64,000 bases of DNA from a bacterium. Lineage in GTDB: Bacteria; Hinthialibacterota; Hinthialibacteria; Hinthialibacterales; Hinthialibacteraceae. Shown here in pieces: positions 13,083 to 28,329 of the stretch (position 1 is its first letter; each line of letters starts with the position of its first letter). The notes beneath the pieces were generated by a model. That model ran no database searches. It had not been told where the DNA came from and saw only the letters and a list, made by a program, of their open reading frames with translations. The stretch lies in assembly GCA_963663405.2 (NCBI GenBank), contig CAXXSM010000118.1, positions 128,001 through 192,000 on the forward strand, in the 5' to 3' direction. The translations under genes and the position numbers were made by a program.

Positions 13083-16000
13083 AAACACAAACACATTATC
13101 CAGTCATCCGCTGGACCGGCTGTATGACCGGGGATACTTTCATGGAGAAGGAAGCGGTTATAATTCAGAAGGCTATCAAAATGAACATGCGGACTGGTCC
13201 GCGTTATTGAATTTGATGCGCGAAGAAAGCGCCGGTTCAATCCGCTGGCTGGATATTGGCTGCGCGTTCGGATACCTTATCGAACAGGCCGAACAGCGTG
13301 ATATTGAAGCATATGGCGTCGATATCAGTTCATACGCCCTGCGCCAATCCTCCAAGGCGCAAGGGAAATTGAGTATGACAAACGCGGAGGCGCTGCCATT
13401 TCCAGACGATTCATTCGACGTTGTCTCTTGTTTCGATCTTGTTGAACATCTCTCCAATCCAGCGCTGGTGATCGAGGAAGCCCAGCGTGTTTTAAAACCC
13501 TACGGAATTCTTTTGATTTCCACTCCTGATCCGATTCATTTCAACCGGGAGGAACCGACACATGTTCATGAACGCCCCCCATCCTACTGGGTGCATCTAT
13601 TGGAACGGATGGGATTCGACGCCGCTCTCCGGTTTGGCGGCCGCCCCTACGAGATAGAACTACTCGCGGCTAATGAAGGGAACGAACGCTGGGAATCCCT
13701 ATCCCGGAAATTCCGGCGTCTACCAACGCCTGACGCTGAATGGATCGTTTCTGATAATGAACGCCTTTTCTTTGCGCCTCGAAATCCGCATTTCGATCGG
13801 AAAATTGAAAAACGATTCGCTTCTCTATTTCCTGAATCCTTCCAATACGCCACTGCGCCTTACGATCTCCATGCGAATATCAGATGAAAGTCACCCCAAC
13901 CTTTATCTAGAAGATCGAAAGATCCAATATCAAGGAAAAACACAAGAAGACGGCGTTTTCGTACATCAATGGTGTGAATTCACACTTCTACCAGGAGGCC
14001 GGGATCTATCTATCCGCCTTGAAAGCGATCCACTCATCATTGACCGTATTGAATTATCAGCGCGTCCATCTGACCGGGAAACCTGTTTGATGGATTTCGC
14101 ATTCGATCATTACCAACGTTACCAACTTGTTTCAGAAATCATTGACGCAATCTCCTGTAAACGGTTGTCCGTGCTGGATGTAGGGGGGGCGCGCGGGATG
14201 CTTTCTCTCTTTGCGCCGCAACATGAAGTCACTCAACTGGACTTGGTTTGGGAAGACACTCCCGGCGCGGTGAAATACGATGGCGGCGCGTTTCCATATA
14301 AGGACCGTTCGTTTGATATTGTTGTCGCGGCCGATACATTGGAACACGTTCCAAAAGAGCGGCGGGAAGCGCTGTTGGATGAACTGATCCGTGTATCGGA
14401 TCAGGCGGTGGTTTTATGTGGACCATACGATGAGCCCAATGTTTGTGACGCGGAAAACGTGATCCGTACATTTATCGGCGCGCAGTTGGGTAGAACCGAT
14501 CGGTTTTTAGAAGAACATGCGCTGTATGGACTTCCCGACCGTCAAACCGTTCGAAGATATCTAGCGAGAACCGGTATGACCGTAACGGAAATCCCAAACG
14601 GTTATTTATCCCGCTGGCTATCAATGCAGCTGGCCTCATACGCGCTGGGTGTCGCGCCGGAACTCGAAGAAGGCAAAGCCCGGTTCAACGCCATCTATAA
14701 TTCGAACTATTACCGCAGCGACAACCGATTTCCTTCTTACCGCATCGCCGCAGTCGCAACCCGCACGAAGCCTTCCTCCGAATTGGAACGCGCGCTGCAC
14801 AATTTAATCGGCGCCGATGGGAAACATGAAGATTTCGTCATGTGGAACGTCGCCTCACTAATCGTTGGGATTTCCAATTATGGATTAATTCGTGAGAAAG
14901 AGACCACGGCGGGAAAACAGATCGAGCGAATCGGCGCGCTTTTAGATCATTCGAGACATCTAGAGCATGATTTAAGAGAATTGCTGAGCCATATTACAAA
15001 CCTCGAAAGCGAGATTAAAGAAGAAGGCGCGCTGCGTAAAAAACTGGTCGAACACACCGATAATATTGACGAAATCCTGGGAAAACAAAAGAATCATTTT
15101 GAATCGGTCGAAGGTCATATTAAGAATTTAGACACTCTCTTATTTGAACAGCAAAAGCACACCTCCAATTCGCACACCCTTAATGAAGAGTTGCAAAAAC
15201 AATTCAGAGGTCTTCAAGATCATATTAAAAACCTGGACAAGCAGATCGCCGAACGTGACGAAACCTATGCGCAATCGCACAAACACATCCAGAATCTAGA
15301 TCAACACAATCAAAACCGAGACCAATTTCTTGCCAGTCTTCAAGATCACCTCCAGAATCTTGACACCCGTGATAATGAACTGCAGGAACGATTGGCGCAA
15401 ATCCAACAGCATGCGGACAACCTTTCCACGATTATCCAAGAAAAAGACTCTGCGCTCGAAAATACGCTGCAACACGCGTCCAACCTGGAAGCGATTATCA
15501 GCGAACTTAAAACCCATATCCAACAACTTGACACTCACAATAAAAACCTAGAAACCAATAGACAAGAACAAGCCAAAATGCAGGCGGATCTTCTCTCCTC
15601 GTCACAAACACATGGCAAAAATCTGGAAACGCTGCTTTCCCACTCGCAGGCCCACGCAAATAATCTTGAAGATCAGCTGCGGAATCAGAATGAAAATTGG
15701 AGAGTTCAACTCGCCGCTTCACAAGATCACGCAAATAACTTAGAACACTTGTTGAGCGATCTAAACGAAAGACTCGCTGGTCAGCAGGCGCACGCGAAAA
15801 ACTTGGAAACAATGCTCCAGGAAAAAGAACAGCAATACCAGAAAGTACATGAATCCCTAACAGAAACACAAAGTAAACTGGATACAGTCAATACTGAGAA
15901 TCAATTCTTAAGAGAGACACTAAAACAAATGACGCCCAAAATGAATCAATTGGCGGGAGAGATGGAACAGATTACAGCGGGCGCTAATAAGTTCGATCTT

Positions 16001-16186
16001 CGGTCCGCGGAAACGTTCTCTCCCGAAATCGCCGATCTATTGGAGGCATTAAATCAAGGGATTCATCGTTTGAATACAAAACGGAAACAGTGGGATCAAG
16101 CCTGCGCCTCGATGGAATCTTCGTTTGGCTATAAACTCTTCGCTCATCTCGGATGGATCCCGCGTTTGGAGGAACCGGCGGACTGA
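13075..16186 (+). CDS. Dual SAM-methyltransferase plus long coiled-coil protein (WbdD-like), split by an apparent +1 frameshift near 13800
   Basis: ORF 13075-13887 (LDIGCAFG, LPFPDDSFD) overlaps ORF 13673-16186 (LDVGGARG, SFDIVVAADTLEH, coiled coil). The second ORF lacks a convincing start. ATGAATGA overlap with wzt. Confidence 0.75.
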
Positions 16187-17985
16187 TGAAAATCTTACAA
16201 GTGATTCACGACTTTTTGCCCAATCATCAGGCTGGTTCTGAACTCTATTGCTATCATTTGAGCAAATCGCTTCAGTCTCTTGGTCATGACGCGCGGCTTC
16301 TATTCACGGAAATCGATCATAACCGGCGGCAATACGAGACGCGCGAAGGAACCTATGACGGATTACCGTTTTATGAAATCGTCAACAATCATTCCTATTC
16401 CAGTGTCGCTGAAACCTACAACAATCCAGCCATCGAAGAAATATTCACACAATCTATTCAAGAATTTCAACCCGATGTAGCGCATTTCCATCACCTTCTC
16501 GGACTCTCCTATGGCTGTGTTCGAATTTGCAAGGAAAACGGGATCCCCGTTTTTTTTACCCTGCATGATTATTGGTTGACGTGTCTCCGGGGGGGTGGAC
16601 AGCGTTTCCGCGCTGATTGTGATGTCTGTCACGATGTGGATACAAGCCTCTGCGCCGAGTGTGTCTCCCAATTCTCGTTTTCCGGACGCTTAGGCAATCG
16701 TTTTGTAAAGAAAGTACTGAATTCGTTTGAACGAAACGTGGATTTTTCTCTCATCCCCGCTATGCGGCAAGGCCGGATTAAAACAGATCATCGCGATTTC
16801 GTCTCCTTTGGACGCTGTGAGATCGATGGCGATTCCCGCGATGTAGTTTTCGCGCATCCGTTTTCACGTATTACATTCCACCGGAACGTCCCGGAAGACG
16901 CCTCCCTGACATTTGCTATCGCAATGGCGCCTTCCACCTACGATAAAAGCGGAGATGGCGTGTCGTTCCAAATCACCTGTAATGGAGAATCTATTTACGA
17001 ATGTTTTTTGAACGCCAAAGAAAATCCAGAGGATCGCGGTTGGCGTCAGGTCACACTCCCGCTTAAAGCTTTCGCAGGCAAAAAACGAGAATTTGTCTTT
17101 GAAACGAATGCTCAACCTACTGGCCGGCCTGATTACTGCGCAGCCTGCTGGGCGGAACCAAAAATCCTGCCTACCAGCGGACAGCGTTATCAGCCCAGTT
17201 TACTCGACCGATTCCGGCGTGGGACCGAACTTATTCTGTCAAGATTACAGAAACGATCATTAAAGCGGGAAGCTGATCTTCGCAAGGAGGCTACACGGCG
17301 CTTATTCGAACAGGTCGATCTCTTTATCGCGCCCTCGCCCTTTCTACGATCCAAGTTCATCGAATTCGGCGTCAATCCCAAGACAATCGCCTTTTCTGAT
17401 TATGGGATCGCTCCAATCCAGATCCCCAGTGATCCACGCCCACCCCGGCGCCCTATACGATTTACTTTCGTCGGCACATTGGTGAAGCACAAAGGGCTTC
17501 ATGTTCTCATTGAAGCGTTCAACGGCCTGCCACATGACGCGGCGATTTTAAATGTATACGGATCTTTAGATGAATTCGAAGGTTACGTCGCGCGTGTCAA
17601 AGCCGCGATCGCCCATCCAGGAATCGCGCTTCGAGGACGCGTTGAAAATCAGGATATCCCCACCATCCTCGCGGAGACTGACGCTCTGATCGTGCCTTCA
17701 ATCTGGTTCGAAAATTCACCGATTACGATTCATGAAGCGTTTTTGGCCCGTGTCCCCGTCATTACCGCGCGATTCGGAGGGATGGCCGATTTAGTAAAAG
17801 ATGAGGTGAATGGATTATTATTCGAAGTTGGGAATCCAGATGATTTATGGCGTGTTTTAACACGATGCGTCAATAAGCCTGAATTGCTCGAAACGCTTCG
17901 CCCCGATCCTAAATCCGTCAAATCGCTGGAGGCGGACGCCGAATGGATGCAAGATCAATACAGCCAATTCATTAAAAAAATATAA
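16186..17985 (+). CDS. Glycosyltransferase family 4 with an inserted beta-sandwich domain
   Basis: MKILQVIHDFLP, TLHDYW, HKGLHVL, PSIWFENSPITIHEA; TGATG coupling to the upstream gene. Confidence 0.88.
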   Translation: MKILQVIHDFLPNHQAGSELYCYHLSKSLQSLGHDARLLFTEIDHNRRQYETREGTYDGLPFYEIVNNHSYSSVAETYNNPAIEEIFTQSIQEFQPDVAHFHHLLGLSYGCVRICKENGIPVFFTLHDYWLTCLRGGGQRFRADCDVCHDVDTSLCAECVSQFSFSGRLGNRFVKKVLNSFERNVDFSLIPAMRQGRIKTDHRDFVSFGRCEIDGDSRDVVFAHPFSRITFHRNVPEDASLTFAIAMAPSTYDKSGDGVSFQITCNGESIYECFLNAKENPEDRGWRQVTLPLKAFAGKKREFVFETNAQPTGRPDYCAACWAEPKILPTSGQRYQPSLLDRFRRGTELILSRLQKRSLKREADLRKEATRRLFEQVDLFIAPSPFLRSKFIEFGVNPKTIAFSDYGIAPIQIPSDPRPPRRPIRFTFVGTLVKHKGLHVLIEAFNGLPHDAAILNVYGSLDEFEGYVARVKAAIAHPGIALRGRVENQDIPTILAETDALIVPSIWFENSPITIHEAFLARVPVITARFGGMADLVKDEVNGLLFEVGNPDDLWRVLTRCVNKPELLETLRPDPKSVKSLEADAEWMQDQYSQFIKKI

Positions 17986-18236
17986 AACCGAATCGGATTG
18001 TACGATCTGGGAGTTTGATTCTATTACACAGGGGATACAATACTTAATAGAGATTTCCACGAGCAAACTTACGATAATTCAACTCTTTTCGAATAGAATA
18101 CGCTGTTGATTTCATCCGGAAGGCCCCTGGCGGCCTTTCTTGTTGTGATGAGTGGATCTGCGTGGGCTGTGATTATAAAGTACATCCTTATCAATATACT
18201 ATATACTATGCGCCATTCTATGAAAGGAAATCACCG

Positions 18237-19640
18237 ATGAAAGTCCTTGTTCTGAATTGTGGGAGTTCGTCCGTTAAGTTTCAATTGATCGAGACCGATA
18301 CGGAAACGGCTCTGTTACGTGGATTGGTCGAGAAGATCGGTTCTTCGTCCGGCGTGCTGTCGTTCCGGGCGGAAGGGGATCGTGATTTTCGTGAAGTTCG
18401 TGAGGTTGTCGATCATGAGGAGGCCGTCAGTCTTGTTCTCTCCATCCTCTCCCACCCGGATCAAGGAGTGGTCTCCTCCCTGGAAGAGATCAGCGCCGTC
18501 GGTCACCGTGTCGTCCATGGGGGGCAGTCTTTTTCAGAATCCGTCATCATTACCGATGAAGTGATTAAAGAGATCGAATACTGCTGCCAATTCGCGCCGC
18601 TTCACAATCCGCACAACCTTAGAGGAATCGAAGCGGTTAAAAAACCGTTGCCTTCGATTTTCCAAGTCGCGGTATTTGATACAGCGTTCCATCAACATAT
18701 GCCTGCAAAAGCCTTCTTATACGGCCTGCCCTATGGTTTATACGAAAAACGAGGCATCCGGAAATACGGTTTCCATGGAACCTCGCACCGGTTCGTCGCG
18801 CAACGAGCGGCGGAAATCCTCGGCAAACCACTTAACGAGATTCGGATCGTCACATGCCATCTGGGCAATGGTTCCAGCATCGCGGCGGTGAAGGATGGAT
18901 CATCGGTCGACACGTCAATGGGATTCACGCCACTGGAAGGCTTGATCATGGGAACGCGATGCGGTGATATCGATCCCGCCATTGTGCCGTATCTGATGGA
19001 AGTGGAAAAACTGTCCAGCAAGAAAATCGATTCCCTGATGAATAAATCCAGCGGTCTAATAGGCTTGACGGAAACCTCGAACGACATGCGTGAGATCGAA
19101 CAGGAAGCGTCCGCCGGCAGTGAACGCCATCAACTGGCCCTCGAAATGGTCGCTTATCGCATCCGCAAGTATCTTGGCGCCTACGCCTTTGTTCTCGGCG
19201 GTCTCGACGCGGTGGTCTTTACGGGTGGCATTGGAGAGAACTCCCGCGCCGTGAGAAAACTGGTTCTCAAAGGGCTGGATTTCGCGGGATTAAAATTGGA
19301 TGAGGAAAAGAATGAGCAAAACGCTGAGAACATCAGCTCCGGCCCCGTCAAAGCCCTAATCATTCCAACAAATGAAGAACTTGCGATCGCGCGGGACACA
19401 GCGGCGTTATACGAATCCATGAGCAAGCAATCCGAATCCGCCGCCAGCGAAACCCCGGCTTTAACAGCGGATGAAAAACGCGAATTGGTGCTCCTCTGGG
19501 CCAACAATCCTAACATGAATCAATTTGAGCTCGTGACATTGTTCAATCAAAAATCCGGGAAGAGCTATTCCGTAGATACATTAAGCGCGGAATTGAAATC
19601 GTTAGGTTTGGACTCCTCTTCTGCGAAAATCAGAGCGTAA
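18237..19640 (+). CDS. ackA: Acetate kinase with C-terminal HTH-like extension
   Basis: VLNCGSSS, GHRVVHGG, APLHNP, FDTAFH, YGFHGTSH, CHLGNG, DTSMGFTPLEG, FTGGIGEN and PTNEE all intact; about 75 extra residues follow. Confidence 0.93.
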   Translation: MKVLVLNCGSSSVKFQLIETDTETALLRGLVEKIGSSSGVLSFRAEGDRDFREVREVVDHEEAVSLVLSILSHPDQGVVSSLEEISAVGHRVVHGGQSFSESVIITDEVIKEIEYCCQFAPLHNPHNLRGIEAVKKPLPSIFQVAVFDTAFHQHMPAKAFLYGLPYGLYEKRGIRKYGFHGTSHRFVAQRAAEILGKPLNEIRIVTCHLGNGSSIAAVKDGSSVDTSMGFTPLEGLIMGTRCGDIDPAIVPYLMEVEKLSSKKIDSLMNKSSGLIGLTETSNDMREIEQEASAGSERHQLALEMVAYRIRKYLGAYAFVLGGLDAVVFTGGIGENSRAVRKLVLKGLDFAGLKLDEEKNEQNAENISSGPVKALIIPTNEELAIARDTAALYESMSKQSESAASETPALTADEKRELVLLWANNPNMNQFELVTLFNQKSGKSYSVDTLSAELKSLGLDSSSAKIRA

Positions 19641-19664
19641 GCGTAACACAAAGGAGCGAACAAA

Positions 19665-20168
19665 GTGAAAACTCTCAATACAGAACGCAGTGGTTGGTTG
19701 TTGGCTCGGGTATGGCTGAATTCGCTGGAAGAGACCGCCCGGGATTTTCATGGCACATATCCTAAACCTTTTCTCTCACGAGCGTATGAACACGCGACGG
19801 GAGCCTGGCTCAGTATCCTGCAGGATGAATATGGATTGGAAATCAAAAAATGCCATGGAATTAAGGAAGCGATTGAGCGGTATATCGAAATCGGTGTAAA
19901 GGGTGGATTATTCCAAGACGCCAGTTACTTCCAGATCAAAGAAATCAATCCGAACAAAGTGGAAGTGAATATTCTTGTCTGCCCTTACGCGAAAAATTGG
20001 CGGGATTCGGTTGGGCAGGGATTTTCCAAACGGGATATTTCGAACGCGCGCATCGGTTGTTTCGCCGCAGCCGTGAAGATTTTAGCGGATATCCCCTGCA
20101 CCTATGAAGTCACCAGTGTCGATAACGAGGCGGAAGGCGCCTATCGCGGCTATATCGAACGCATGTAG
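19665..20168 (+). CDS. V4R / methanogen-output-domain-like small protein
   Basis: Helical N-terminal half, then VEVNILVCPY...RIGCF...CTYEV...YRGYI; AAGGAG RBS and GTG start. Confidence 0.5.
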   Translation: MKTLNTERSGWLLARVWLNSLEETARDFHGTYPKPFLSRAYEHATGAWLSILQDEYGLEIKKCHGIKEAIERYIEIGVKGGLFQDASYFQIKEINPNKVEVNILVCPYAKNWRDSVGQGFSKRDISNARIGCFAAAVKILADIPCTYEVTSVDNEAEGAYRGYIERM

Positions 20169-20191
20169 CGAAACGGAGAGATTCGGTAACC

Positions 20192-22051
20192 ATGACTACT
20201 CTCGATCAATCTATCAGTCTATTAAAATCCTCTTCCTATTGGAAAGAACGGCGGGAAGCCGCTTTAGTATTAGGAAGAAGCAAAGAGTCGCGAGCCAATG
20301 AGGCGCTCGTTGAAGCGTTGAACGATCCAGACGATGATGTTCTTCAGGCCGTGATCCTCTCGCTGGGCGCTACGGGAGACAATAATGTAGTGGAGAAAAT
20401 GCTCCTGCCCCGATATTTGAATCATCCCGATTCACGCATCCGCTGGGCGACCTTAAAAACGATTGGCAAAATCGGCCGCTCCTTCGTTGTCACCAACGTC
20501 GCCGAGCTCATGAATGATGAAGAATGGGTTGTCCGGAACGAAGTGGAGAAACTCCTTCACAAGCAAGTGAAATCCGTCTTGGCCGAATGTTCGGACGAAT
20601 CCGCCCAGCGAATGATGGGACTATTGATTACAGATAATGAGGATCTGCGTGATATTCTGATTGAAGCTTTCCTTCAAATCGGTCCCCGAATCATGCCGTT
20701 GCTTCGTGATTCGGTCCGGGTCGGTGGGCAAAAGATCCAAACGGCGATGGCGTATGTGCTGGGGAAACTGAAAGACGCGGATTCTGTGCCCATTCTAATC
20801 GAATTGCTTGATTCGTCGGATAAAACGATTCGCAAAAGCGCGGTGGACGCATTGGGTCAAATCGCGGACGAATCCTCCATCCCAGCCATGATCGAGAAAT
20901 TTGCGGATTCTTCCAAAGAAGTCCAGCAAAGCGCCGTCGAAGCGCTCGCATTAATTGGTAAACCAGCGGTTGAGCCACTTCACGAAAAGCTTCGCTATTC
21001 ATCCCGCAAAATTATCCAGAAAAACGTGTTGCTGACCTTGGGCATGATCAAGGATCCTTCCTCAATTCCCTATTTCATCGAATATATGGCCAGCACATAT
21101 TTCATCGTCCGTCGCGTCGCGGTGAATGGTCTCGTTCACTATGGAGAGAAAGGCGCGCAAGCGGTTCTCGATGTCATCCGCAATGTCAAATTGCCGATGG
21201 TAGATGATCTTCTCAAGAAATCAGAACACGGCGCGACAATTGGAATCCGGGTACGCGCGATCCGGGCGCTCGGAGCCCTCGCAGATCACCGAGCCGTCCA
21301 TTTGTTGAAACGATTGGCCGCAAGCGAAGAACCATTGATTCAAAAAGCGTCTCTTGAATCCTTAGCGCAAATCGGTTGTTCCTGCTGGCAACGGTCCGGC
21401 GCTTTGGCTGTCTTGCGAGAACTCCGGCTGGCGCCGGATGTGGATCTAATCGTTGAACAATTGGATGATGATTCCGAAAACGTTCGATTCCGGACGGTTC
21501 AAGTCCTGGCGCGTTGCGAAAATCCACGAGCGGTTCCTGCGTTGCTTCAGACCGTTGCGATCGATGGGAATCCAATTATGCGCTATGAAGCGCTTCGAGC
21601 GGCGGATATCTTGGAACCAGGCAATCCCCGAATCGTCGAAACGGCCAACCGCGCGTTGGAAGATCCTGCGCCCCAAGTCCAAGCGGAAGCGGCCCGTGTT
21701 ATTGGCCGTTCTCCCAGCGCCGATCATCTTCCCCTCTTGCTCGAGTGCCTGAAAAACCCGAGTTGGGAAGTCCGCCGGAACACAGCGTTGGCTTTGGGTA
21801 ATATCGGTGTGGCGGCGCTTCCATATTTATTGGAACGGTTAGAAAAGGGTAATGAGACAGAGGTGGAATCAGTGATCCGCGCCATAGGAAATATCGGGGA
21901 TCCGGAAGCGATGTCTAAAGTAGATGCAATACTCGATAATTATCCCAAGAATTCACCGGTCCAATACGCCGCGGTTAAAGCTTTCGCAGAAATTCGAAAA
22001 AGAGAAGAAGAAAAAGAGAAACACGAAGGATTTTCGACCCTTCCATCCTGA
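20192..22051 (+). CDS. HEAT/PBS-lyase repeat protein
   Basis: Repeated D.d..vR..A..aLG units over 619 aa. Confidence 0.9.
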   Translation: MTTLDQSISLLKSSSYWKERREAALVLGRSKESRANEALVEALNDPDDDVLQAVILSLGATGDNNVVEKMLLPRYLNHPDSRIRWATLKTIGKIGRSFVVTNVAELMNDEEWVVRNEVEKLLHKQVKSVLAECSDESAQRMMGLLITDNEDLRDILIEAFLQIGPRIMPLLRDSVRVGGQKIQTAMAYVLGKLKDADSVPILIELLDSSDKTIRKSAVDALGQIADESSIPAMIEKFADSSKEVQQSAVEALALIGKPAVEPLHEKLRYSSRKIIQKNVLLTLGMIKDPSSIPYFIEYMASTYFIVRRVAVNGLVHYGEKGAQAVLDVIRNVKLPMVDDLLKKSEHGATIGIRVRAIRALGALADHRAVHLLKRLAASEEPLIQKASLESLAQIGCSCWQRSGALAVLRELRLAPDVDLIVEQLDDDSENVRFRTVQVLARCENPRAVPALLQTVAIDGNPIMRYEALRAADILEPGNPRIVETANRALEDPAPQVQAEAARVIGRSPSADHLPLLLECLKNPSWEVRRNTALALGNIGVAALPYLLERLEKGNETEVESVIRAIGNIGDPEAMSKVDAILDNYPKNSPVQYAAVKAFAEIRKREEEKEKHEGFSTLPS

Positions 22052-22084
22052 CCCCGCCTGGATGAAGAGAATTCAATAATTCAA

Positions 22085-22972
22085 TCAAAGAAGCGCCGTA
22101 CTGAAATAACGCTCTGCCCGGTCGGGCAGGACTGTCGCGACATTCCCTGCCCCTTTCGAGGCGAGTTGACGCGCGGCCCAAATATTCGCGCCGGATGATA
22201 TCCCCACTAGTAAGCCATGATCTCTCCCCAGTTGCCGGGTCGTTTCCACCGCTTGTTCATCCGTCACCTCTATCACTTCATCGATCAACGAAACATCAAG
22301 AACGGCCGGGATAAATCCATCCCCGATTCCCTGAATCTGGTGAAGGCCGGGTTCATGACCAAGCAGGGCGGACACGTTCTTCGGTTCAACGGCGGCAAGT
22401 TTTACATCGGGTTTACGTTCTTTCAGAAATTTCCCGATTCCCTGCAAGGTTCCTCCGCTTCCTACGCCAGCTACGAAGCAGTCGATTTCTCCATTCATCT
22501 GCCGCCATAATTCATGAGCCGTCTCTTCATAATGAACGCGGGGATTGTCGGGATTCTCGAATTGCTGTGGAACAAAGACATTAGGATCTTCTTTCTGCAT
22601 TTGACGAACCCGTTCAACCGCGCCGCCGATACTTTCTTTCGCCGGTGTGAGAACCAGTTCGGCGCCAAGGACTCGTATCAGTTTTTTTCGTTCTTCACTC
22701 ATGTTCTCCGGCATGACGATCCGCACTTTATACCCTTTGAGGCGTCCCACCAGCGCGACGCCGATCCCCGTATTGCCGGAAGTCGGCTCAACGATGATTG
22801 AGCCGGGATGAAGCCGTTTATCCCGTTCCGCGCCTTCGATCATCGAGAGCGCCACCCGGTCTTTTACGCTTCCTCCAGGATTCAAAAATTCCGCTTTCGC
22901 GTAAATGGGTTGATCTTTCAAGCGGATTAAAGGGGTGTTTCCAATTAGATTTAAAATATTATCCGTCAGCAT
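22085..22972 (-). CDS. cysK: Cysteine synthase A
   Basis: IGNTPL, NPGGSVKDR, EPTSGNTG, QQFENPDN, GVGSGGT, HQIQGIG, GISSGA. Confidence 0.95.
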   Translation of the reverse strand: MLTDNILNLIGNTPLIRLKDQPIYAKAEFLNPGGSVKDRVALSMIEGAERDKRLHPGSIIVEPTSGNTGIGVALVGRLKGYKVRIVMPENMSEERKKLIRVLGAELVLTPAKESIGGAVERVRQMQKEDPNVFVPQQFENPDNPRVHYEETAHELWRQMNGEIDCFVAGVGSGGTLQGIGKFLKERKPDVKLAAVEPKNVSALLGHEPGLHQIQGIGDGFIPAVLDVSLIDEVIEVTDEQAVETTRQLGRDHGLLVGISSGANIWAARQLASKGAGNVATVLPDRAERYFSTALL

Positions 22973-23034
22973 TCATTCATCTCAATAACATAAGAATTAA
23001 GGAGCAGGTGTCAATAGTATATTAATTTGACAGC

Positions 23035-23310
23035 CTAGCAAACAATTGTAAGCCAAAAGAAAAGGAAGCCAGCCGCAGAGCTAAGAAGCGCGCCGGCAAT
23101 CGCGTATTTCTTAGGAGTATCCGTAATGAGCCCCATTAGACTCAAGAAAAATCCCATAGGAGTTCCGATTACAAATGCGATACCGCCAAGGTACCGAATC
23201 GGCGATCCTCACCCAGGGCGCAGAATAAACATTGCCAGCATAGCGAACCAAGGCATGCATGAGTACAACAAGCCTTTCCCCCCATACCGGACATTTTCAT
23301 CTTCATACAT
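23035..23310 (-). pseudogene. Small 3-TM membrane protein interrupted by an in-frame TGA
   Basis: Not in the ORF track. GGAG RBS, then MYEDENVRYGGKGLLYSCMPWFAMLAMFILRPG*GSPIRYLGGIAFVIGTPMGFFLSLMGLITDTPKKYAIAGALLSSAAGFLFFWLTIVC. TGA at 23209-23211. Confidence 0.6.
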
Positions 23311-23501
23311 TTTTGCTTTCTCCAACGTCAACAAGCCAAACATACAAAGGAATGATTATTGTATCCCACTTTAAACCTATATCAATCCCAGATTACGCGT
23401 AGCCGCCTAATGACAATATACATCCTGGGCGATATCTATATTTCAATCGCTGTTCAAAGTAGTATACTTGTATAAACGTTCATCCAAGGAGGTCCTCATT
23501 C

Positions 23502-25166
23502 GTGTATAGGCGTTGTATCAAAGTAGGAATCTATATACTTACCTTTATCCTTCTTAAATCATCAATCGGTCAAGCGCAGTTCTGTTTTGTTGAAAACGCG
23601 AAGGATCGGGGAATCGACTTCGTTCAAGTGAATGGATCGAAGGAGAAAGAATATATTGTTGAGGCGAAAGGGGCGGGTGTCGCCGCCGTTGATGTAAATG
23701 GCGATGGTTGGGAGGATGTGTACTTAGTAAATGGAACCTCCATACACGGAGACGCGCCCTCGCCAGCTCCTGTCAATCGATTGTATTTAAATCAAGGCGA
23801 CGGCACATTTAAAGATGGTACCCAAGAAAGCGGTTTAGGAGATCCAGGCTTTGGCACGGGCGCGTATTTCGCTGATATTGACAACGATGGCGACCTCGAT
23901 TGCTATCTGACCAATTTTGGCCCGAATTCGCTCTACCTGAATGATGGAAAAGGCCATTTTACCCTCGTTCCCGGCGCCGGTGGGGCTCAGAATGATGGAT
24001 GGAGCACGGGTGTAGCCTTCGCGGATATCAATGGCGATGATTTTCTTGATCTATATGTTGGTCAATACGCTGAATTCAGTACGGAAATTGCAAACAAAAA
24101 AGGAAAACTTGGCCCTTATTATGGATTTAAAGCGTTTATCGGCCCCTCATCATTCCAACCGGCGCAAGATAATCTCTTTCTCAACAACGGAGATGGAACC
24201 TTCATAGACGAAACAAAAAAGCGGGGAATCAATTCATTCGACCGTGGGCGCGCCTTCTCTGTTTTCTTCACAGATCTTGACTTGGACGGTGATCTCGATC
24301 TTTACGTCGCGAACGACTCAACCTACAACCAACTCTACGAAAATAACGGAAAGGGATTTTATGAAGATATTTCCCTTCTAGCGGGAATCGGTCTCAGCCA
24401 AGACGGTCGAGAGCAGGGCAGCATGGGATTGGCCATCGGTGACTCAGACGGCGATCTCGATCTAGATATTTTCGTAAACAACTACGACAGTGAATACAAT
24501 ATACTCTACCGGAACGACGGAGATCTCCAATTCACCGATTCCACCTATCCCAGCCATATCGGTCAAGGAACAATGAAAAAAGTTAGTTTTGGCTTATTGT
24601 TGGAAGATTTCGATAACGATGGCTGGCCTGATCTCCACGTCTGCAATGGCCATGTCTATCCTGTCGCTGATAAAGTTCCGACTTTAGATGGTTACGAACA
24701 AGCGGATTTATTCTTCCATAATTTGGGAAAGGGAAATTATAAAAATGTATCGGACCTTGTGGGGCCGGCGTCGAAACTGAAGGGTGTGTCGAGAGGAAGC
24801 GCCACTGCTGATTTCGACCACGATGGCGATCTGGATATCGTAATCAACAACCTCGACCGCGCTCCGTTTTTTTTGGAGAATAAGAGTTCTGTTGGAAATT
24901 GGATACAAATCGCCGCGCAAAACGAACGTGGAATGCCCGCCTATGGCGCGCGTTTAATCGTTGAAAGCAATCTGCGATCCCAAATCGCGGAACTTCACTC
25001 CGGCGCCAGTTTCCTATCCCAAAGCAGCCCCGTCATGCATTTTGGACTGGGCAAAGACATGACTGTCAAAAAAATCACCGTCCGTTGGCCGGATGGAACT
25101 ACGAGTGAATTATCCACCGTCAAAGCCAATCAACGAATGATTATACGGAAAAAGAGCGAGAGGTAA
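23502..25166 (+). CDS. CRTAC1/ASPIC-UnbV family FG-GAP repeat protein
   Basis: Repeated DxDxDGDLD motifs; C-terminal GASFLSQSSPVMHFGLG...VRWPDG; signal peptide. Confidence 0.92.
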   Translation: MYRRCIKVGIYILTFILLKSSIGQAQFCFVENAKDRGIDFVQVNGSKEKEYIVEAKGAGVAAVDVNGDGWEDVYLVNGTSIHGDAPSPAPVNRLYLNQGDGTFKDGTQESGLGDPGFGTGAYFADIDNDGDLDCYLTNFGPNSLYLNDGKGHFTLVPGAGGAQNDGWSTGVAFADINGDDFLDLYVGQYAEFSTEIANKKGKLGPYYGFKAFIGPSSFQPAQDNLFLNNGDGTFIDETKKRGINSFDRGRAFSVFFTDLDLDGDLDLYVANDSTYNQLYENNGKGFYEDISLLAGIGLSQDGREQGSMGLAIGDSDGDLDLDIFVNNYDSEYNILYRNDGDLQFTDSTYPSHIGQGTMKKVSFGLLLEDFDNDGWPDLHVCNGHVYPVADKVPTLDGYEQADLFFHNLGKGNYKNVSDLVGPASKLKGVSRGSATADFDHDGDLDIVINNLDRAPFFLENKSSVGNWIQIAAQNERGMPAYGARLIVESNLRSQIAELHSGASFLSQSSPVMHFGLGKDMTVKKITVRWPDGTTSELSTVKANQRMIIRKKSER

Positions 25167-25172
25167 AATCAA

Positions 25173-25204
25173 CGAACCCGCCGTATCTTCCTACGGCGGG
25201 TTCG
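25173..25204. terminator. Hairpin between convergent genes (probable terminator)
   Basis: CGAACCCGCCGTA / TACGGCGGGTTCG 13-bp perfect stem. Confidence 0.75.
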
Positions 25205-25261
25205 AATTCATTTGTTTTATATGTTTCCCTATCCAATCACAATACGGATAGAGTGCGATTC

Positions 25262-26194
25262 CTACTGCAATAGTTCCCAACTCGGCGCCGAGGATGATTG
25301 CAATTTGGTTAACGTAAATGGACCCGTGTAGGAGAGGGGTTCACGATCAACAAGAGCTTGGGGCCGCATTCCTGCCGGTTCTTCCTCCTCGTTTTCATCT
25401 TGCCGCTCGATGGAAATGGTGAAAGTTCCGGTGATCTCGGTCCGATCTTCATTGATCTGTCCGCTTCCACTAACTGTAAACGTAAAGACTCCAACGTTCT
25501 TGATCTCCGCCGTTGTGGAATAGGAGAATTCAAACTCACTGGGATCAACTATCGTAAAGAGACCCGCAACAGGGATATCGGCCAGACGGCCTTCCTCTCT
25601 CAGCATCCCAAGAATCGTTCCTTCGGCGCCCAATTCAATAACGCCTTCCCAATTAATAATAAGAGAATCGTCATTAATATCCAATTGCCATTCGCCTTCA
25701 AGCAGTTTTCCGCCTAACGCCGGTGTGGATCCCTCACGGGTCATGATGAAAGCGACTGGAGTGGCGCTGTACGTATCGACTGGACTGATGAGTTGAGTGT
25801 AGGCTTGCGATTCTTTCCAAATACCGATTAACAGATTGTTATCTTCAGTTCCCATTCCCGTCGCGACGATTTCGGACGCGACCGCCATCTGTTTGGATTC
25901 GGCGGCGACACCAGCGCCAGCGCCAATGTATAATAACTGACGGGTTTCGGTAAATTCCGCTTTTCCACGGTGAACGGTATTGAAATTATATTCCGTATCG
26001 CCAATGGAATGAACAATCGATTCTGTAAAACTCACATTCCCTTCCGCGTCAAACGTCAGAACGCTGAATTCCGATCCAGGCACTTTGGTTTGCAGCGTCC
26101 ACGTTCCTTTCAAAGCGTCTTCCTGCGCATGAGCAAGACTCACGGCGAACAGCGAACAGACGAGACCAGCGTACAACCACTTTTTCATTCCCAT
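25262..26194 (-). CDS. Secreted beta-rich protein ending in SSAPSWELLQ
   Basis: AGGAGG RBS; signal peptide ending AHA-Q; two LxGxWxL lipocalin-like repeats. Confidence 0.8.
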   Translation of the reverse strand: MGMKKWLYAGLVCSLFAVSLAHAQEDALKGTWTLQTKVPGSEFSVLTFDAEGNVSFTESIVHSIGDTEYNFNTVHRGKAEFTETRQLLYIGAGAGVAAESKQMAVASEIVATGMGTEDNNLLIGIWKESQAYTQLISPVDTYSATPVAFIMTREGSTPALGGKLLEGEWQLDINDDSLIINWEGVIELGAEGTILGMLREEGRLADIPVAGLFTIVDPSEFEFSYSTTAEIKNVGVFTFTVSGSGQINEDRTEITGTFTISIERQDENEEEEPAGMRPQALVDREPLSYTGPFTLTKLQSSSAPSWELLQ

Positions 26195-26442
26195 GTTGTA
26201 ATTCCTCCTGTGAAGCAAAAAAAGAATATAGCCCAACCACTTGACCACCTATACATGATGGACAAGATGAGCTCAAAAGACATAATAAATTATTGCATTA
26301 ATACAATTATTGTCAATCATAATTAGGAAAATAAATTACATATAGTAAAATATAAATCTCATCCGCATCTCGCTTTATAAAAAATTAGATATTTAATGTT
26401 TCGGATTTAATCTGTAGTTTGGACAGGGAACCTTGAAGAGAA

Positions 26443-26525
26443 GAAAAAATGAGGGAGAATCAAAGAAAGGGACGCAGGCTTGTTCGTCTCTTGGAAGAGT
26501 ACTCTTCCAACATGATTCTCCCCCC
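26443..26525 (-). ncRNA. Candidate structured small RNA or cis-regulatory element
   Basis: Closing stem GGGAGAATCA/TGATTCTCCC encloses a perfect 20-bp palindrome (26491-26510) and a GAGACG/CGTCCC stem; followed by a U-tract on the minus strand. Confidence 0.4.
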
Positions 26526-27135
26526 AGCGTGTTGAGTGTTTCATATCTAAAAATCAGATAACTTTTTTTTGTCCTTATCCTTTATTTCTAAATTCATACA
26601 CAATATATTTACTGAGATATATTTCAAAAATTTCTGTACAAAAAACATGATTCTGTAACATTCCATTTCAATCCAATGAATAGAAAATCGGGAAGAAATT
26701 CAATATAATAATGAAATGTATCCTGATTAACTTTACTATTTCAGGTAAATACTTTAAAAATGATTCTATTTCACATTAATTTAGGGTATAATTGAGAATA
26801 AAAGAAAAACAAAGAAAAATCTTGTCCACAATAATAGATAAAACAATTCAAATTACAATCTTTTAATTCTTTTTGGAAAATTATTTTCCATTACTTATAT
26901 GAGTAAATATTCAAATCAAGATTTTGTCAAGAAAATTTTTCTATTTTTTTAAATTACCTAAATTAAAGGTTTTTATTTCTTTGTGATGGGGATAAGATAG
27001 ATTGAATTTTGATAGATTCTTTTATGGAGAATTCGCATAATTGATTCGAGTGTTTAATCATGGAAGACAGGATTTGTTTTTAGATTTCGTTTTATGTGTC
27101 TTCTCGGATAGACAACAACAAGGAGTCGAACGATC

Positions 27136-28329
27136 TTGAAATTGTTTGGCGAATTATTACGGAACTTCCGGCGGTCTCGAAATATGACCCAGCAGGAGAT
27201 GGCCGATCGTCTTCATCTCTCTTCACCGTATATCGCTCAGATGGAGAGTGGATTTAAACCTCCTCCCCCCCAAGCGATCGTGGATAATATGGCCACGATC
27301 ATGCGTCTTGGAATCGACGAGAAAAAACAATTCACCCAGGCGGCGGAAACAGAACGCGAATTACAGAGTTTGGTGAAAGCCACTCGAAAAGTCGGGTACG
27401 TTTTGGCGGGGAACAAAGTCTGTGTGCCACAGAATTCCATCATTGAACGCGCGCAGAATGAAGTGGAGGAATTGGTCGAGTCTATCCCAAAAGATGCGGA
27501 TTTTTGTATCGATTTGGCGCCGTCGGACCGGAGAAAATGGCATCCAGGAAAGACATCCGTATCGATTTCGCGTCATGGTGAAATGCGATCGTGGATGATT
27601 GCGGAGCTAGGAAACCAACCCGGGGTTCTATTAGTTTTTTTAGGGAATCTTTATGAAGTTCTTTTACTAACACCGGATGAAAGGCTTCTCTGCCGGCATC
27701 CATCCGAACGCCGGATGGCGATTACTGAAAATGGGGATGACATCAATGAGTTCTTCCAACGGGTAAACGGCGCGATAAAAAAAGCCATCTCTTTGGCCGA
27801 AGAGCAGAGACTGCCGGAAGTGATCGCGCCGCACGTGGCTTGGAGAGACATTGATGAAATGCTCGGCGCCAGCCAGGCAAGCGAGACCGGCCAACAAACA
27901 CACGAACTGCGGGCTGGCTCGGATTCGATCCGTAACATCCCTGTTCTCTACATTGTTGAAGCCGGATCGGAAGAATTGGAAGAACGGCCGGGATTGGGCA
28001 GCATCGGACTTCCGCACAATTGGTTCGATTCAACGAGAAAATATGAAGCCTGCAAGATCCAAACCGACGCGTATATATCAATCGGCGTTTGGCCAGGATG
28101 TAAAACGATCTATGAATTGAGCAATGACGCTGAAAATGAAGACCTCGTGATCGTGAAACTTGGCAACCGGATTTGCTTCCGTCGCTATTTTGATTTCGGC
28201 GATCAGATTCTCTTGCAAGGGGGGCCTTTGGCGAAACCGATCCGTGTATTGAAGGGAGAGTCGTCGATCCGTTTTGTGGGGGTTGTGCGAGAATTGGTAT
28301 CCCGGTTTAGGGATATTCAGTATTCATAA
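27136..28329 (+). CDS. XRE-HTH regulator with a central domain and a degenerate S24 (LexA/CI-like) C-terminal domain
   Basis: FGELLRNFRRSRNMTQQEMA...YIAQMESG; C-terminal IPVLYIVEAG...KIQTDAY...DLVIVK...FRRY...IRFVGVV. Confidence 0.8.
   Translation: MKLFGELLRNFRRSRNMTQQEMADRLHLSSPYIAQMESGFKPPPPQAIVDNMATIMRLGIDEKKQFTQAAETERELQSLVKATRKVGYVLAGNKVCVPQNSIIERAQNEVEELVESIPKDADFCIDLAPSDRRKWHPGKTSVSISRHGEMRSWMIAELGNQPGVLLVFLGNLYEVLLLTPDERLLCRHPSERRMAITENGDDINEFFQRVNGAIKKAISLAEEQRLPEVIAPHVAWRDIDEMLGASQASETGQQTHELRAGSDSIRNIPVLYIVEAGSEELEERPGLGSIGLPHNWFDSTRKYEACKIQTDAYISIGVWPGCKTIYELSNDAENEDLVIVKLGNRICFRRYFDFGDQILLQGGPLAKPIRVLKGESSIRFVGVVRELVSRFRDIQYS

Follow-up and report, generated by a model that had tools for sequence, protein, structure and literature searches.

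An acetate kinase with a C-terminal HTH-type domain recurs beside an unnamed protein family and a HEAT-repeat protein in many uncultured anaerobes

The window considered here is a bacterial DNA stretch of 64,000 nucleotides. Three plus-strand genes, at 18237-19640, 19665-20168 and 20192-22051, make up one tight operon in it. They encode an acetate kinase with a C-terminal extension (AckA-ext, 467 aa before the stop), a 167-aa protein (p167) that begins with a GTG after AAAGGAG, and a 619-aa HEAT protein. The genes have their own ribosome-binding sites, another sign of operon structure, and are separated by 24 and 23 nt, in agreement with the initial annotation, which had proposed gaps of about 24. 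A terminator-like hairpin at 18118..18139 of the plus strand (8-pair stem with 5 GC, then a T-run; TTGTTGTGAT) closes the upstream glycosyltransferase gene and sets the 5' limit of the operon. The AckA-ext ATG is preceded by a Shine-Dalgarno-like GAAAGGAA (18222..18229, plus strand), invariant in 6/6 aligned upstream regions; the leader that contains it is the only upstream stretch kept among the five close relatives aligned, and we found no conserved operator-like element upstream of ackA in this set. Downstream, cysK (PALP; 22085-22972, minus strand) converges on the operon as first described; its adjacency is incidental, since it occurs in none of the 80 p167 loci that we surveyed elsewhere.

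The acetate kinase core (18237..19415, plus strand, residues 1-393) scores far above the family cut-offs, with 514.1 bits against PF00871 (Acetate_kinase, cut-off 22, residues 2-386) and 522.2 bits against TIGR00016 (cut-off 293.4). It aligns with M. thermophila AckA (1g99) at 466.8 bits and without gaps to about residue 365. V93, L122, F179 and P232 of the acetate pocket are identical between the two enzymes, as are S10-S12, K14, H123, D148 and N211 among the catalytic residues. The same holds for N7, R91, H180, R241 and the Glu of PTNEE, whose roles in acetate kinase are named in an excerpt of PMC11717252. The claim that catalytic motifs are intact in a chain running on past PTNEE is thus borne out residue by residue, and AckA-ext, judged by these residues, is an orthodox acetate kinase predicted to be catalytically competent.

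It is probably also the principal acetate kinase of the cell. In three genomes (two complete chromosomes and the closest relative) AckA-ext is the sole AckA-family match, and the further paralogue present in the source genome, 40% identical, is substituted at R91, D148 and N211. The reported lack of pta applies to the neighbourhood in the window but not to the genome, where pta lies on a separate contig (414 bits); in three close relatives it stands directly upstream of ackA. AckA-ext therefore resembles the canonical enzymes (M. thermophila 1G99/1TUY, T. maritima 2IIR) in its full-length core, its identical catalytic and pocket residues and the presence of pta in the genome. It differs in that the chain of the solved canonical enzymes stops 10-15 residues past PTNEE, whereas AckA-ext continues with a linker and HTH-type domain totalling 74 residues, and in being encoded with p167 and the HEAT protein.

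Within this extension, the linker (19416..19457, plus strand, residues 394-407) differs in length and sequence among 41 relatives and is modelled with pLDDT below 50 (model residues 24-31). The domain that follows (19458..19619, plus strand, residues 408-461) has 54 residues in three helices, at 37-49, 55-66 and 72-81 in model numbering, with pLDDT about 85. It coincides with the peptide previously picked out as HTH-like and placed at about 19461-19610. The domain, of the form LxxLWAxNP...ELxxLGL, is present in all 74 relatives whose tails were readable, so the extension is not a chance one; the suspicion that it might have neither fold nor conservation can be set aside.

This domain is remotely related to PF01498 (HTH_Tnp_Tc3_2), the family of the second HTH ('RED') in Tc1/mariner/IS630 transposases. 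The window tail reaches 17.8 bits (E 0.0041), under the gathering cut-off of 31.5 bits, and 25 of 41 tails match at E<=1 (best 2.7e-7). A profile of the tails finds the Sleeping Beauty RED domain (5unk) at E 0.026 and a true transposase at E 3.7e-6; it also retrieves HTH-repeat proteins with scores over the Pfam cut-off, and this recovery of true PF01498 proteins provides reciprocal support. A three-helix pattern, LSxxxxxxLVxxxxxNPxxSxxELxxxLxxxxGxxVSxxTVxRxL, appears collinear between the two. In a Foldseek search with the tail model 5unk ranks second (E 1.4, TMt 0.53), and in fold comparison the top matches are the DNA-binding domains of ArgR/AhrC and sigma-54, at Z 6.3-6.8, all tail scores lying below the Z of 8 under which the tool's own scale speaks of a 'common arrangement'. 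We conclude that the tail is a conserved HTH-type domain, related at a sub-threshold level to the HTH of Tc1/mariner transposases. Unlike the PF01498 transposases, it is joined to a metabolic enzyme, comes with no transposase, and is neutral to acidic (median net charge 0, range -4 to +4; pI 4.7 for the window copy). The basic residues of helix 1 are replaced by hydrophobic ones, LVRKVQ of Sleeping Beauty RED corresponding to LVlLWa.

An AckA extension has been described in Treponema vincentii and T. pallidum. These enzymes are active and carry a helical C-terminal extension of ~50 aa with three helical elements and no known function (9DV8/9DV9), and the authors state that such extensions also occur outside spirochetes (PMC11717252, in excerpt). 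AckA-ext is likewise predicted to be an active AckA with a helical C-terminal extension. However, the Treponema extension lies against the surface of the enzyme, whereas that of AckA-ext is modelled as a disordered linker followed by an autonomous domain; partner genes are not mentioned in the PMC11717252 excerpt, while AckA-ext has p167 and the HEAT protein. 9dv8 was listed neither by our tail profiles A3 (E<=10) and A2 (E<=1) nor in the fold searches, from which a short helical domain could escape.

The second gene (19665..20168, plus strand) encodes a protein that matches nothing in Pfam or NCBIfam at E<=0.01. Its AF2 model (pLDDT 91.3) shows N-terminal helices against a four-stranded sheet, an alpha/beta arrangement as in H-NOX, V4R and Bet3. 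The best fold matches are TRAPP/Bet3 chains (Z 9.3 for 7b6d_F, and 8.7) and H-NOX domains (Z 8.6 and 8.5; 4u99 at 8.6, 134 aligned residues, rmsd 3.8), followed by V4R (2oso, Z 7.1, 102 aligned, rmsd 3.2), DmpR (6iy8, Z 7.0) and PoxR (5fru, Z 6.5). Altogether they span Z 6.5-9.3 over 102-146 residues, which are moderate values. Foldseek links the model to H-NOX at E 3.8e-4. When 25 homologues were scanned against Pfam at E<=10, PF14196 (ATC_hydrolase) was the only family to appear, with collinear sub-threshold matches in 10 (best E 3.9e-4; 21.7 bits, the cut-off being 28.1); the window copy has no such match, and neither it nor the 25 homologues reach the cut-offs of V4R (PF02830), HNOB (PF07700), MetOD1 (PF18546) or PF14196. 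For one homologue, P0066, the language-model neighbours (0.94) are clusters that carry ATC hydrolase as an automatic name. Galperin et al. 2018 place MetOD1 in the ATC_hydrolase/V4R/H-NOX superfamily (PMC5847659, in excerpt), and the earlier description of p167 as V4R/MetOD1-like is in keeping with these results. We assign p167 to an unnamed family that has the H-NOX/V4R/Bet3 fold, set apart from the known families as a stand-alone 165-aa protein tied to the AckA operon with its own invariant N-terminal motif, GWxxxxxWxxxLEExARDFHG, and no sign of a haem ligand.

A set of polar residues (E22, R26, D27, R39, Y41, H43 and Y108) is invariant in the family, with R129 nearly so, and seven Cys columns are each kept in 79-98 of 103 homologues. 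These cysteines form a putative cluster; V4R, ATC hydrolase and MetOD1 proteins have a cysteine cluster, which is the Zn site in PoxR/MopR-type V4R domains (PMC5847659, in excerpt). Going by the cysteines carried in most lineages, p167 is likely to bind a metal or a small ligand. The window copy, however, retains C106, C132 and C145 and lacks the other four cysteines, and has a unique two-residue insertion, so a metal-dependent function may be absent in the source organism. About 10% of the homologues similarly lack most cysteines and still keep the operon.

The third gene (20192..22051, plus strand) does encode the HEAT protein that had been announced, with HEAT_2 (PF13646) at 256 bits over seven stretches, HEAT at 116.5 bits and HEAT_PBS (PF03130) at 112.5. 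The GCSCWQR motif (21374..21394, plus strand), previously taken for an atypical insert, turns out to be the opposite: it is the most conserved motif of the family, with signature IGCaaWgRc, and W399 and R401 are invariant across 35 aligned HEAT proteins. The best NCBIfam rows come from the phycobilin lyase and NblB models (NF045915, NF058502, NF058515). Membership in these families is not supported, as the scores (136.9 bits for NblB, 91 for CpcE and 65.9 for CpcF) stay under the respective cut-offs of 300, 330 and 220 and reflect generic HEAT repeats.

Is the trio conserved beyond the window? Around 80 loci found via p167, under about a dozen phylum-level labels, p167 is directly preceded by AckA in 77 and directly followed by HEAT in 78 (all genomes are MAGs, and loci from related organisms are non-independent observations), so that the three genes are far from unlinked elsewhere. 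Of the five misses, three (L046, L078, L077) fall at contig ends and two (L080, L076) are genuine, while the other flanking genes vary between lineages. In a control set, p167 and HEAT lie within 5 kb of only 1/72 tail-less AckA loci; tail-bearing loci in the same set have p167 in 7/8, the eighth stopping at a contig edge. The exception, L095, has p167 and HEAT adjoining a 400-aa AckA without the tail, which indicates that the association does not strictly require the tail. Of 35 genomes in the phylum of the source organism, 11 have the tail, and precisely these 11 have p167 (11/11 against 0/24); in the 17 other genomes with AckA the main AckA is tail-less and p167 is lacking. Five further genomes with tail-less AckA were also devoid of p167.

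On a tree of AckA cores, all 79 tail-bearing rows fall within one clade of 82 (support 99), and the tail changes state 3 times, against 49.5 in shuffles (0/500 as low). The tail-bearing AckAs thus have, on this core phylogeny, a single origin. In one diverged lineage AckA, tail and p167 are fused into single 646-aa proteins, of which there are three versions, 88-89% identical. They also share one open frame at L085, L086, L088 and L092 (L087 is partial), and HEAT begins 4 nt downstream of the fusion in the four complete cases.

In many uncultured anaerobes, then, acetate kinase, the main ATP-making fermentation enzyme, carries an extra HTH domain and travels with two uncharacterised partners, a system for which our literature search returned no published description. 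The recurrent trio points to an undescribed complex that would control or position acetate kinase. The earlier suggestion that it senses acetate or acetyl-phosphate gains no support from these results. The reading we prefer, whose chances we would call even, is that the three genes are one functional unit, an accessory complex that would act on the main acetate kinase. It would be a hetero-oligomer built around a catalytically competent AckA dimer. The C-terminal three-helix domain, a domesticated transposase-type HTH, would act as a protein adaptor joining AckA to p167; p167 would be seated on the 600-aa HEAT solenoid, and, in response to a ligand or redox signal, the two would gate or position the activity of acetate kinase. 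The neutral tail, the change from basic to hydrophobic residues and the lack of a conserved upstream operator argue for an adaptor rather than a DNA binder, and we consider DNA binding by the tail less likely. Against an adaptor stand the homology of the tail to a DNA-binding domain and alignment columns 35, 43, 44 and 48, where basic residues are moderately conserved. Its retention in the covalent AckA-p167 fusions would be unexpected if tethering p167 were its only role.

This last point, together with the kinship to Tc1/mariner HTHs and the ArgR/AhrC and sigma-54 matches, would suit a trigger enzyme, with AckA-ext both enzyme and transcription factor: the dimer would offer two HTHs to DNA, expression would follow acetate, acetyl-phosphate or ATP occupancy, and p167 and HEAT would be co-regulators. 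V4R domains, whose fold p167 matches, are indeed the sensors of DmpR/PoxR-type regulators (PMC5847659, in excerpt). We find this unlikely, given the charge and helix 1 of the tail, fold scores within the common-arrangement range and an upstream region where only the ribosome-binding leader is conserved; moreover, ackA directly follows a hydrogenase gene in about 22 loci, without a promoter region of its own, and one would not expect a simple repressor to be so strictly coupled to a 600-aa HEAT protein. Alternatively, p167 could be an ATC-hydrolase-like or thiol enzyme and HEAT a CpcE/F- or NblB-like lyase or chaperone, the pair covalently modifying AckA or another target, for example by moving an acyl or phosphoryl group from acetyl-phosphate onto a Cys. 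Bet3, whose chains top the p167 fold matches, self-acylates, and the PF14196 matches, the neighbours of P0066, the invariant polar set with its conserved Cys and the identity of the best NCBIfam rows all lean this way. However, no PF14196 score attains the cut-off, the lyase scores fall far short of theirs, and the operon is kept where most cysteines are gone; we think it improbable.

The genomic context raises a further possibility, that p167 and HEAT belong primarily to a cytoplasmic Mvh-type hydrogenase/Hdr electron-bifurcating machinery, for assembly or electron relay, with AckA attached secondarily. In the Aminicenantes-labelled lineage the trio sits inside an Mvh hydrogenase/Hdr operon: a NiFe hydrogenase large subunit directly precedes ackA in 22 loci, HdrC/HdrB-type genes follow HEAT in about 29, and L030 has HdrA-like and MvhD-type genes annotated further downstream. 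At L080 p167 and HEAT come directly after the hydrogenase gene and AckA is missing (that MAG carries AckA-tail and p167 elsewhere, at L076), and a Cys-rich p167 could hold an Fe-S cluster. Yet such a context is confined to related loci, most of them with an Aminicenantes label, and the flanking genes are unrelated to it in the window, in its close relatives and in the other phyla. Moreover, p167 tracks the AckA tail and not hydrogenase, and the fusions join p167 to AckA, which leaves this reading quite improbable. Finally, the three genes could be mere neighbours without shared function and the tail a neutral appendage, as might be said of the Treponema extension, for which no function is known either (PMC11717252, in excerpt). 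Recurrence across about a dozen phylum labels despite varying flanks, the exact phyletic match and fusions recurring in a diverged lineage already make this very unlikely.

Among systems with comparable parts, the Che7 system of Myxococcus xanthus reportedly uses a large PBS-lyase-type HEAT protein, Cpc7, as signalling partner with CheY7; the trio loci differ, with no CheR, CheY or other receiver gene among their annotated neighbours. In ROK repressors (NagC/Mlc) and in other enzyme-HTH fusions such as BirA and PutA, a single chain holds an HTH together with an enzyme domain, of ASKHA fold or another. In ROK repressors the HTH is winged and N-terminal and kinase activity is usually lost, whereas the HTH of AckA-ext is C-terminal and of transposase type, its enzyme residues are intact and it has two dedicated partner proteins.

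The genes for an acetate kinase with a C-terminal extension (AckA-ext, 18237-19640, 467 aa), a 167-residue protein (p167, 19665-20168) and a 619-residue HEAT-repeat protein (20192-22051) are ORFs on the plus strand, with intergenic gaps of 24 and 23 nt and a Shine-Dalgarno-like motif ahead of each. At 18118-18139, a terminator-like hairpin and its T-run mark the end of the upstream glycosyltransferase gene, and a cysK-like gene of the PALP family (22085-22972, minus strand) converges on the trio. We rejected a longer AckA reading frame starting at GTG 18162, because the alignment to solved acetate kinases begins at the M of MKVLV and the leader GCGCCATCCGATGAAAGGAA precedes that ATG. This leader is the sole upstream stretch conserved among five close relatives. 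No sigma-70-like promoter was found on the plus strand, and two upstream palindromes (18084-18097 and 18196-18209) are not conserved in relatives. Scanning 17000-27500 against Rfam at E<=1 gave a chance miRNA row only, and no riboswitch or leader RNA was detected.

Residues 1-393 of AckA-ext score 514 bits against PF00871 and 522 bits against TIGR00016, exceeding both cut-offs, and the core aligns to Methanosarcina thermophila AckA (1g99) with 466.8 bits, ungapped for about 365 residues. The two proteins are identical at N7, S10-S12, K14, R91, H123, D148, H180, N211, R241 and the glutamate of PTNEE, and likewise at the pocket residues V93, L122, F179 and P232. We take S10-S12, K14, H123, D148, N211 and the four pocket residues to have the roles usually assigned to them; those of N7, R91, H180, R241 and the glutamate are given in excerpts of PMC11717252. 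A second AckA-family gene lies on another contig of the same genome (G000 C113, L004:1495-2679), next to a PRPP synthetase gene; its 395-aa product is 40% identical and substituted at the positions of R91, D148 and N211. Since this paralogue is divergent and lacks key residues, AckA-ext is, by its sequence, the orthodox acetate kinase of the genome. It is also the sole AckA-family match in two complete module-bearing chromosomes and in the closest relative. Most AckA-bearing genomes of the phylum likewise contain paralogues with lower scores (about 350-410 bits). The initial annotation described the operon as lacking pta, which is true of the locus; however, pta is present elsewhere in the genome (414 bits), and in three close relatives (L008, L011, L012) it immediately precedes ackA, so that its absence is only local. 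All five other genomes checked also have pta.

Past PTNEELAIARDT, AckA-ext continues through a variable, low-confidence linker into a 54-residue domain (19458-19619), hereafter the tail. The pattern LxxxxkaxLVLLWAxNPxxsxxxLxxxLxxxxGkxvsxxxVxxELxxLGL is shared by all 74 tails read among 80 loci, the six loci left out having a broken AckA ORF (L014, L051), a frameshift (L038) or no AckA (L046, L078, L080). An AlphaFold model built with 41 tail sequences has three helices (pLDDT about 85). The HTH-like pattern first noted in the extension from its sequence is borne out. HTH_Tnp_Tc3_2 (PF01498) matches 25 of 41 tails at E<=1 (best 2.7e-7), the window's own tail scoring 17.8 bits, under the 31.5-bit cut-off. 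Against solved structures, the tail profile found the RED subdomain of the Sleeping Beauty transposase (5unk) at E 0.38 and E 0.026. Fold searches returned HTH or winged-helix domains only (ArgR, Z 6.8; AhrC, 6.7; sigma-54, 6.3) and Foldseek gave E 1.4 or worse, neither being decisive; a protein search with residues 405-467 returned the window's own protein alone.

Against 1.84 billion representative proteins, the tail profile had 84 matches at E<=0.001. The 15 inspected comprise seven AckA C-terminal pieces, one whole AckA-tail-p167 fusion, two tail-only fragments, an odd 151-aa ORF, three repetitive proteins and a transposase. The transposase scores 104 bits against HTH_Tnp_Tc3_2 and carries DDE_3 (Pfam), and two of the repeat proteins (65 and 79 bits) are true PF01498 members. 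The tail is thus a remote relative of the HTH of Tc1/mariner/IS630 elements, from which it was probably domesticated. Some top matches of the profile (P0123 and P0146, 493 aa each, and P0107-P0110) consist of the same HTH_Tnp_Tc3_2-like helix pair repeated in 4-28 tandem copies, with no transposase domain.

The window's p167 has no Pfam or NCBIfam match. A protein search gave 104 matches including itself, nearly all of 164-179 aa; the named ones are all called hypothetical, and none of the matches has a precomputed Pfam domain. Its structural model (pLDDT 91.3, pTM 0.87) matches the H-NOX/V4R/Bet3 fold: TRAPP subunits 7b6d_F and 3cue_B (Z 9.3 and 8.7), H-NOX proteins 4u99 and 1xbn (Z 8.6 and 8.5; H-NOX by Foldseek, E 3.8e-4), the V4R protein 2oso (Z 7.1), DmpR (Z 7.0) and PoxR (Z 6.5). 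Collinear sub-threshold matches to ATC_hydrolase (PF14196) occur in 10 of 25 homologues, the window copy not among them. The language-model neighbours of one homologue (P0066) fall in clusters automatically named ATC hydrolase, which is a lead only; the ESM Atlas held no entry for the window's p167 or for the homologue P0040. As far as excerpts of Galperin et al. (PMC5847659) go, MetOD1, HNOB, V4R and ATC hydrolase are grouped together and a shared Cys cluster is noted. Taken with the fold and the weak ATC_hydrolase matches, this grouping makes the initial label of p167, 'V4R/MetOD1-like', right at superfamily level, but not as family membership. Across 103 homologues, E22, R26, D27, R39, Y41, H43 and Y108 form an invariant polar set, and seven Cys columns are each kept in 79-98 sequences. 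The window's copy is atypical, with four of the seven cysteines lost (L37, W112, N127, Y160) and a two-residue insertion present in no other sequence of the alignment.

The HEAT protein comprises seven HEAT_2 stretches (256 bits) and scores far under the cut-offs of the NblB, CpcE and CpcF equivalogs. Its GCSCWQR, initially read as an atypical insert, turned out to lie in IGCaaWgRc, the motif that is conserved best across the family; an alignment of 35 relatives has W399 and R401 invariant.

How far do the three genes travel together? A p167-based search gave 80 loci from species-representative genomes, all MAGs, whose labels include Omnitrophota, Aminicenantes, KSB1, Zixibacteria, Raymondbacteria, Neomarinimicrobiota, Fermentibacteria, Gemmatimonadota, Acidobacteriota/Thermoanaerobaculia, Verrucomicrobiota, Bacteroidota and Bacillota; these labels are the depositors', some automatic, and may be unreliable. 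The three-gene neighbourhood is conserved: AckA lies directly upstream of p167 in 77 of the 80 loci, two misses being contig ends (L046, L078) and L080 a true exception, and HEAT lies directly downstream in 78, with one contig end (L077) and one true exception (L076). The convergent cysK, seen in the window, is adjacent to the trio in none of the 80 loci, nor is the upstream glycosyltransferase, and we discarded both as parts of the module.

A second set of 80 loci, retrieved with a fusion-protein query, served as control. Eight are tail-bearing, of which seven have p167 and the eighth stops at a contig edge; among the 72 tail-less AckA loci, p167 and HEAT occur in L095 alone. In 35 genomes of the window's own phylum, tail and p167 are found in exactly the same 11, adjoining each other, whereas 17 further genomes lack both and carry a tail-less AckA with a high score. 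p167 was also absent genome-wide from five more genomes with tail-less AckA (one complete chromosome, the rest MAGs). In the phylum (G011-G044), the main AckA comes, within one family, in two mutually exclusive versions, with a 1155-nt core match when tail-bearing and a 1230-nt match when tail-less, the difference amounting to some 25 additional residues in the core of the latter.

AckA, tail and p167 also occur as a single 646-aa protein, in three versions that are 88-89% identical without gaps. Five loci of the control set encode proteins 69-72% identical to these, in one open frame in L085, L086, L088 and L092, where HEAT begins 4 nt downstream, and partially in L087. An apparent 651-aa AckA-p167 fusion in a long-read MAG (L038:4543-6498) was rejected as an artefact, the frame shifting inside the tail domain; the HEAT gene is broken there too, and the breaks are probably assembly indels.

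We built a FastTree of 148 AckA cores (79 with tail, 69 without), omitting incomplete cores and the duplicate L098 and excluding the tail columns; it is rooted on the long branch of the window genome's divergent paralogue. All 79 tail-bearing sequences fall in one clade of 82 (support 99), together with three tail-less ones (L089, L091, L095). Tail presence requires 3 changes on the tree, against 49.5 in shuffles, none of 500 being as low. This quick tree fits a single gain of the tail, a few losses and spread across phyla. One of the nested sequences is the 400-aa AckA of L095 (L095:4992-8446, a Bacillota-labelled MAG), which ends right after the core and is followed by p167 and a 586-aa HEAT protein. 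Together, these genomic comparisons show the trio to be one inherited unit, predicted to be co-transcribed and sometimes fused, built on the main acetate kinase.

Beyond the trio, flanking genes vary, and the annotated neighbours include no CheR or CheY. One large group, mostly labelled Aminicenantes, is an exception to this variation. The order there is MvhG-type, NiFe large subunit, AckA-ext, p167, HEAT, HdrC, HdrB, HdrA-like and MvhD. Hydrogenase genes lie directly upstream of the trio in 22 loci and HdrC/B downstream in about 29. About a quarter to a third of loci place the trio between MvhG/MvhA-type NiFe hydrogenase and HdrC-HdrB-HdrA-like-MvhD genes on one strand, as in L030:2131-12132; loci with this context are L015-L034, L045, L047, L056, L060, L062, L066, L071, L072, L074, L080, L081 and L084. 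One MAG splits the module: at L080:4493-8338 p167 and HEAT come immediately after a hydrogenase large subunit, with no AckA, and at L076:4551-6486 AckA-tail is followed by a second p167 copy, with no HEAT and with racemase and epimerase genes next. This division suggests that p167 is the hub of the module.

Is the tail a protein adaptor or a DNA-binding domain? We infer that the three products may bind one another in a complex, where the tail would act as adaptor. DNA binding is what the descent of the tail from a DNA-binding family would suggest, and two further facts speak against an adaptor: the tail is kept in covalent AckA-p167 fusions, and L095 manages without it. However, the tail is neutral (median net charge 0, median pI 6.8, window pI 4.7), its helix 1 reads LVlLWa against LVRKVQ in the Sleeping Beauty RED subdomain, and no upstream operator is conserved in the five close relatives, all of which argues for a protein adaptor over DNA binding. 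p167, which combines a ligand-binding fold with a polar patch that is invariant and, in most cases, a Cys cluster, is the natural candidate for a sensor or catalytic subunit. A more ambitious version of the adaptor complex, which we consider rather unlikely, is a three-protein holoenzyme in a dozen uncultivated anaerobic phyla, in which a signal received by p167 would switch the sole acetate kinase on or off. The Cys-cluster H-NOX/V4R-fold subunit would sense a redox, metal or small-molecule signal, tied in some lineages to the Mvh hydrogenase/Hdr bifurcation module, and the switch would act through the domesticated transposase HTH domain and the HEAT scaffold. With such a holoenzyme, both the class of enzyme-regulatory complex and the use of a transposase DNA-binding domain as protein adaptor would be new.

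Most fermentations obtain their ATP through acetate kinase, which also determines how much acetyl-phosphate, a global donor of phosphoryl and acetyl groups, is present. To our knowledge, textbooks treat substrate-level phosphorylation by this enzyme as having no dedicated protein regulators. What we describe is a widely conserved accessory module, as yet undescribed, that accompanies an enzyme known in itself. If dedicated, strictly co-inherited partners act on the principal AckA, they would control fermentative energy conservation at an additional level, one not seen in model organisms, and this would concern many sediment and subsurface lineages; module-bearing labels include Aminicenantes, KSB1, Zixibacteria, Marinimicrobia, Gemmatimonadota, Fermentibacteria and Raymondbacteria, besides the window's own phylum. 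The module would also open a first route to the function of two large 'hypothetical' families, that of the 165-aa p167 and that of the 610-aa HEAT protein with IGCaaWgRC, and would clearly exemplify how a metabolic enzyme can take over an HTH domain from a transposase. Experiments can address it directly: the proteins are soluble, their small size permits expression, and the natural fusions indicate which parts to combine.

The closest published parallel to the tail is the roughly 50-aa helical C-terminal extension of Treponema AckA, unexplained in excerpts of PMC11717252; profile and fold searches detected no similarity between the two. Those excerpts name no partner genes for the Treponema enzyme, whereas AckA-ext is encoded with p167 and HEAT. 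In literature searches, with subscription journals outside their scope, no module of the AckA-HTH, AckA-V4R or AckA-HEAT kind was found described, and the sole paper containing both 'acetate kinase' and 'HEAT repeat' in a full-text search is unrelated.

Other features of the window were seen around the trio. In an 837-aa protein (13673-16186, plus strand), a central methyltransferase domain (about residues 146-252) is combined with a long coiled coil at the C-terminal end, in which an HxxNL(D/E)-type motif recurs many times. The 610-aa GT4 glycosyltransferase encoded next (16153-17985, plus strand) has an insert of about 220 residues between its two lobes, opening with the Cys-rich stretch CDVCHDVDTSLCAECV. 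Further downstream, between a minus-strand gene (25262-26248) and a plus-strand gene at 27136, lies a very AT-rich stretch of about 880 bp (26250-27130; GC about 0.24-0.39, against about 0.48 in its surroundings), with no ORF of at least 60 aa past about 26330.
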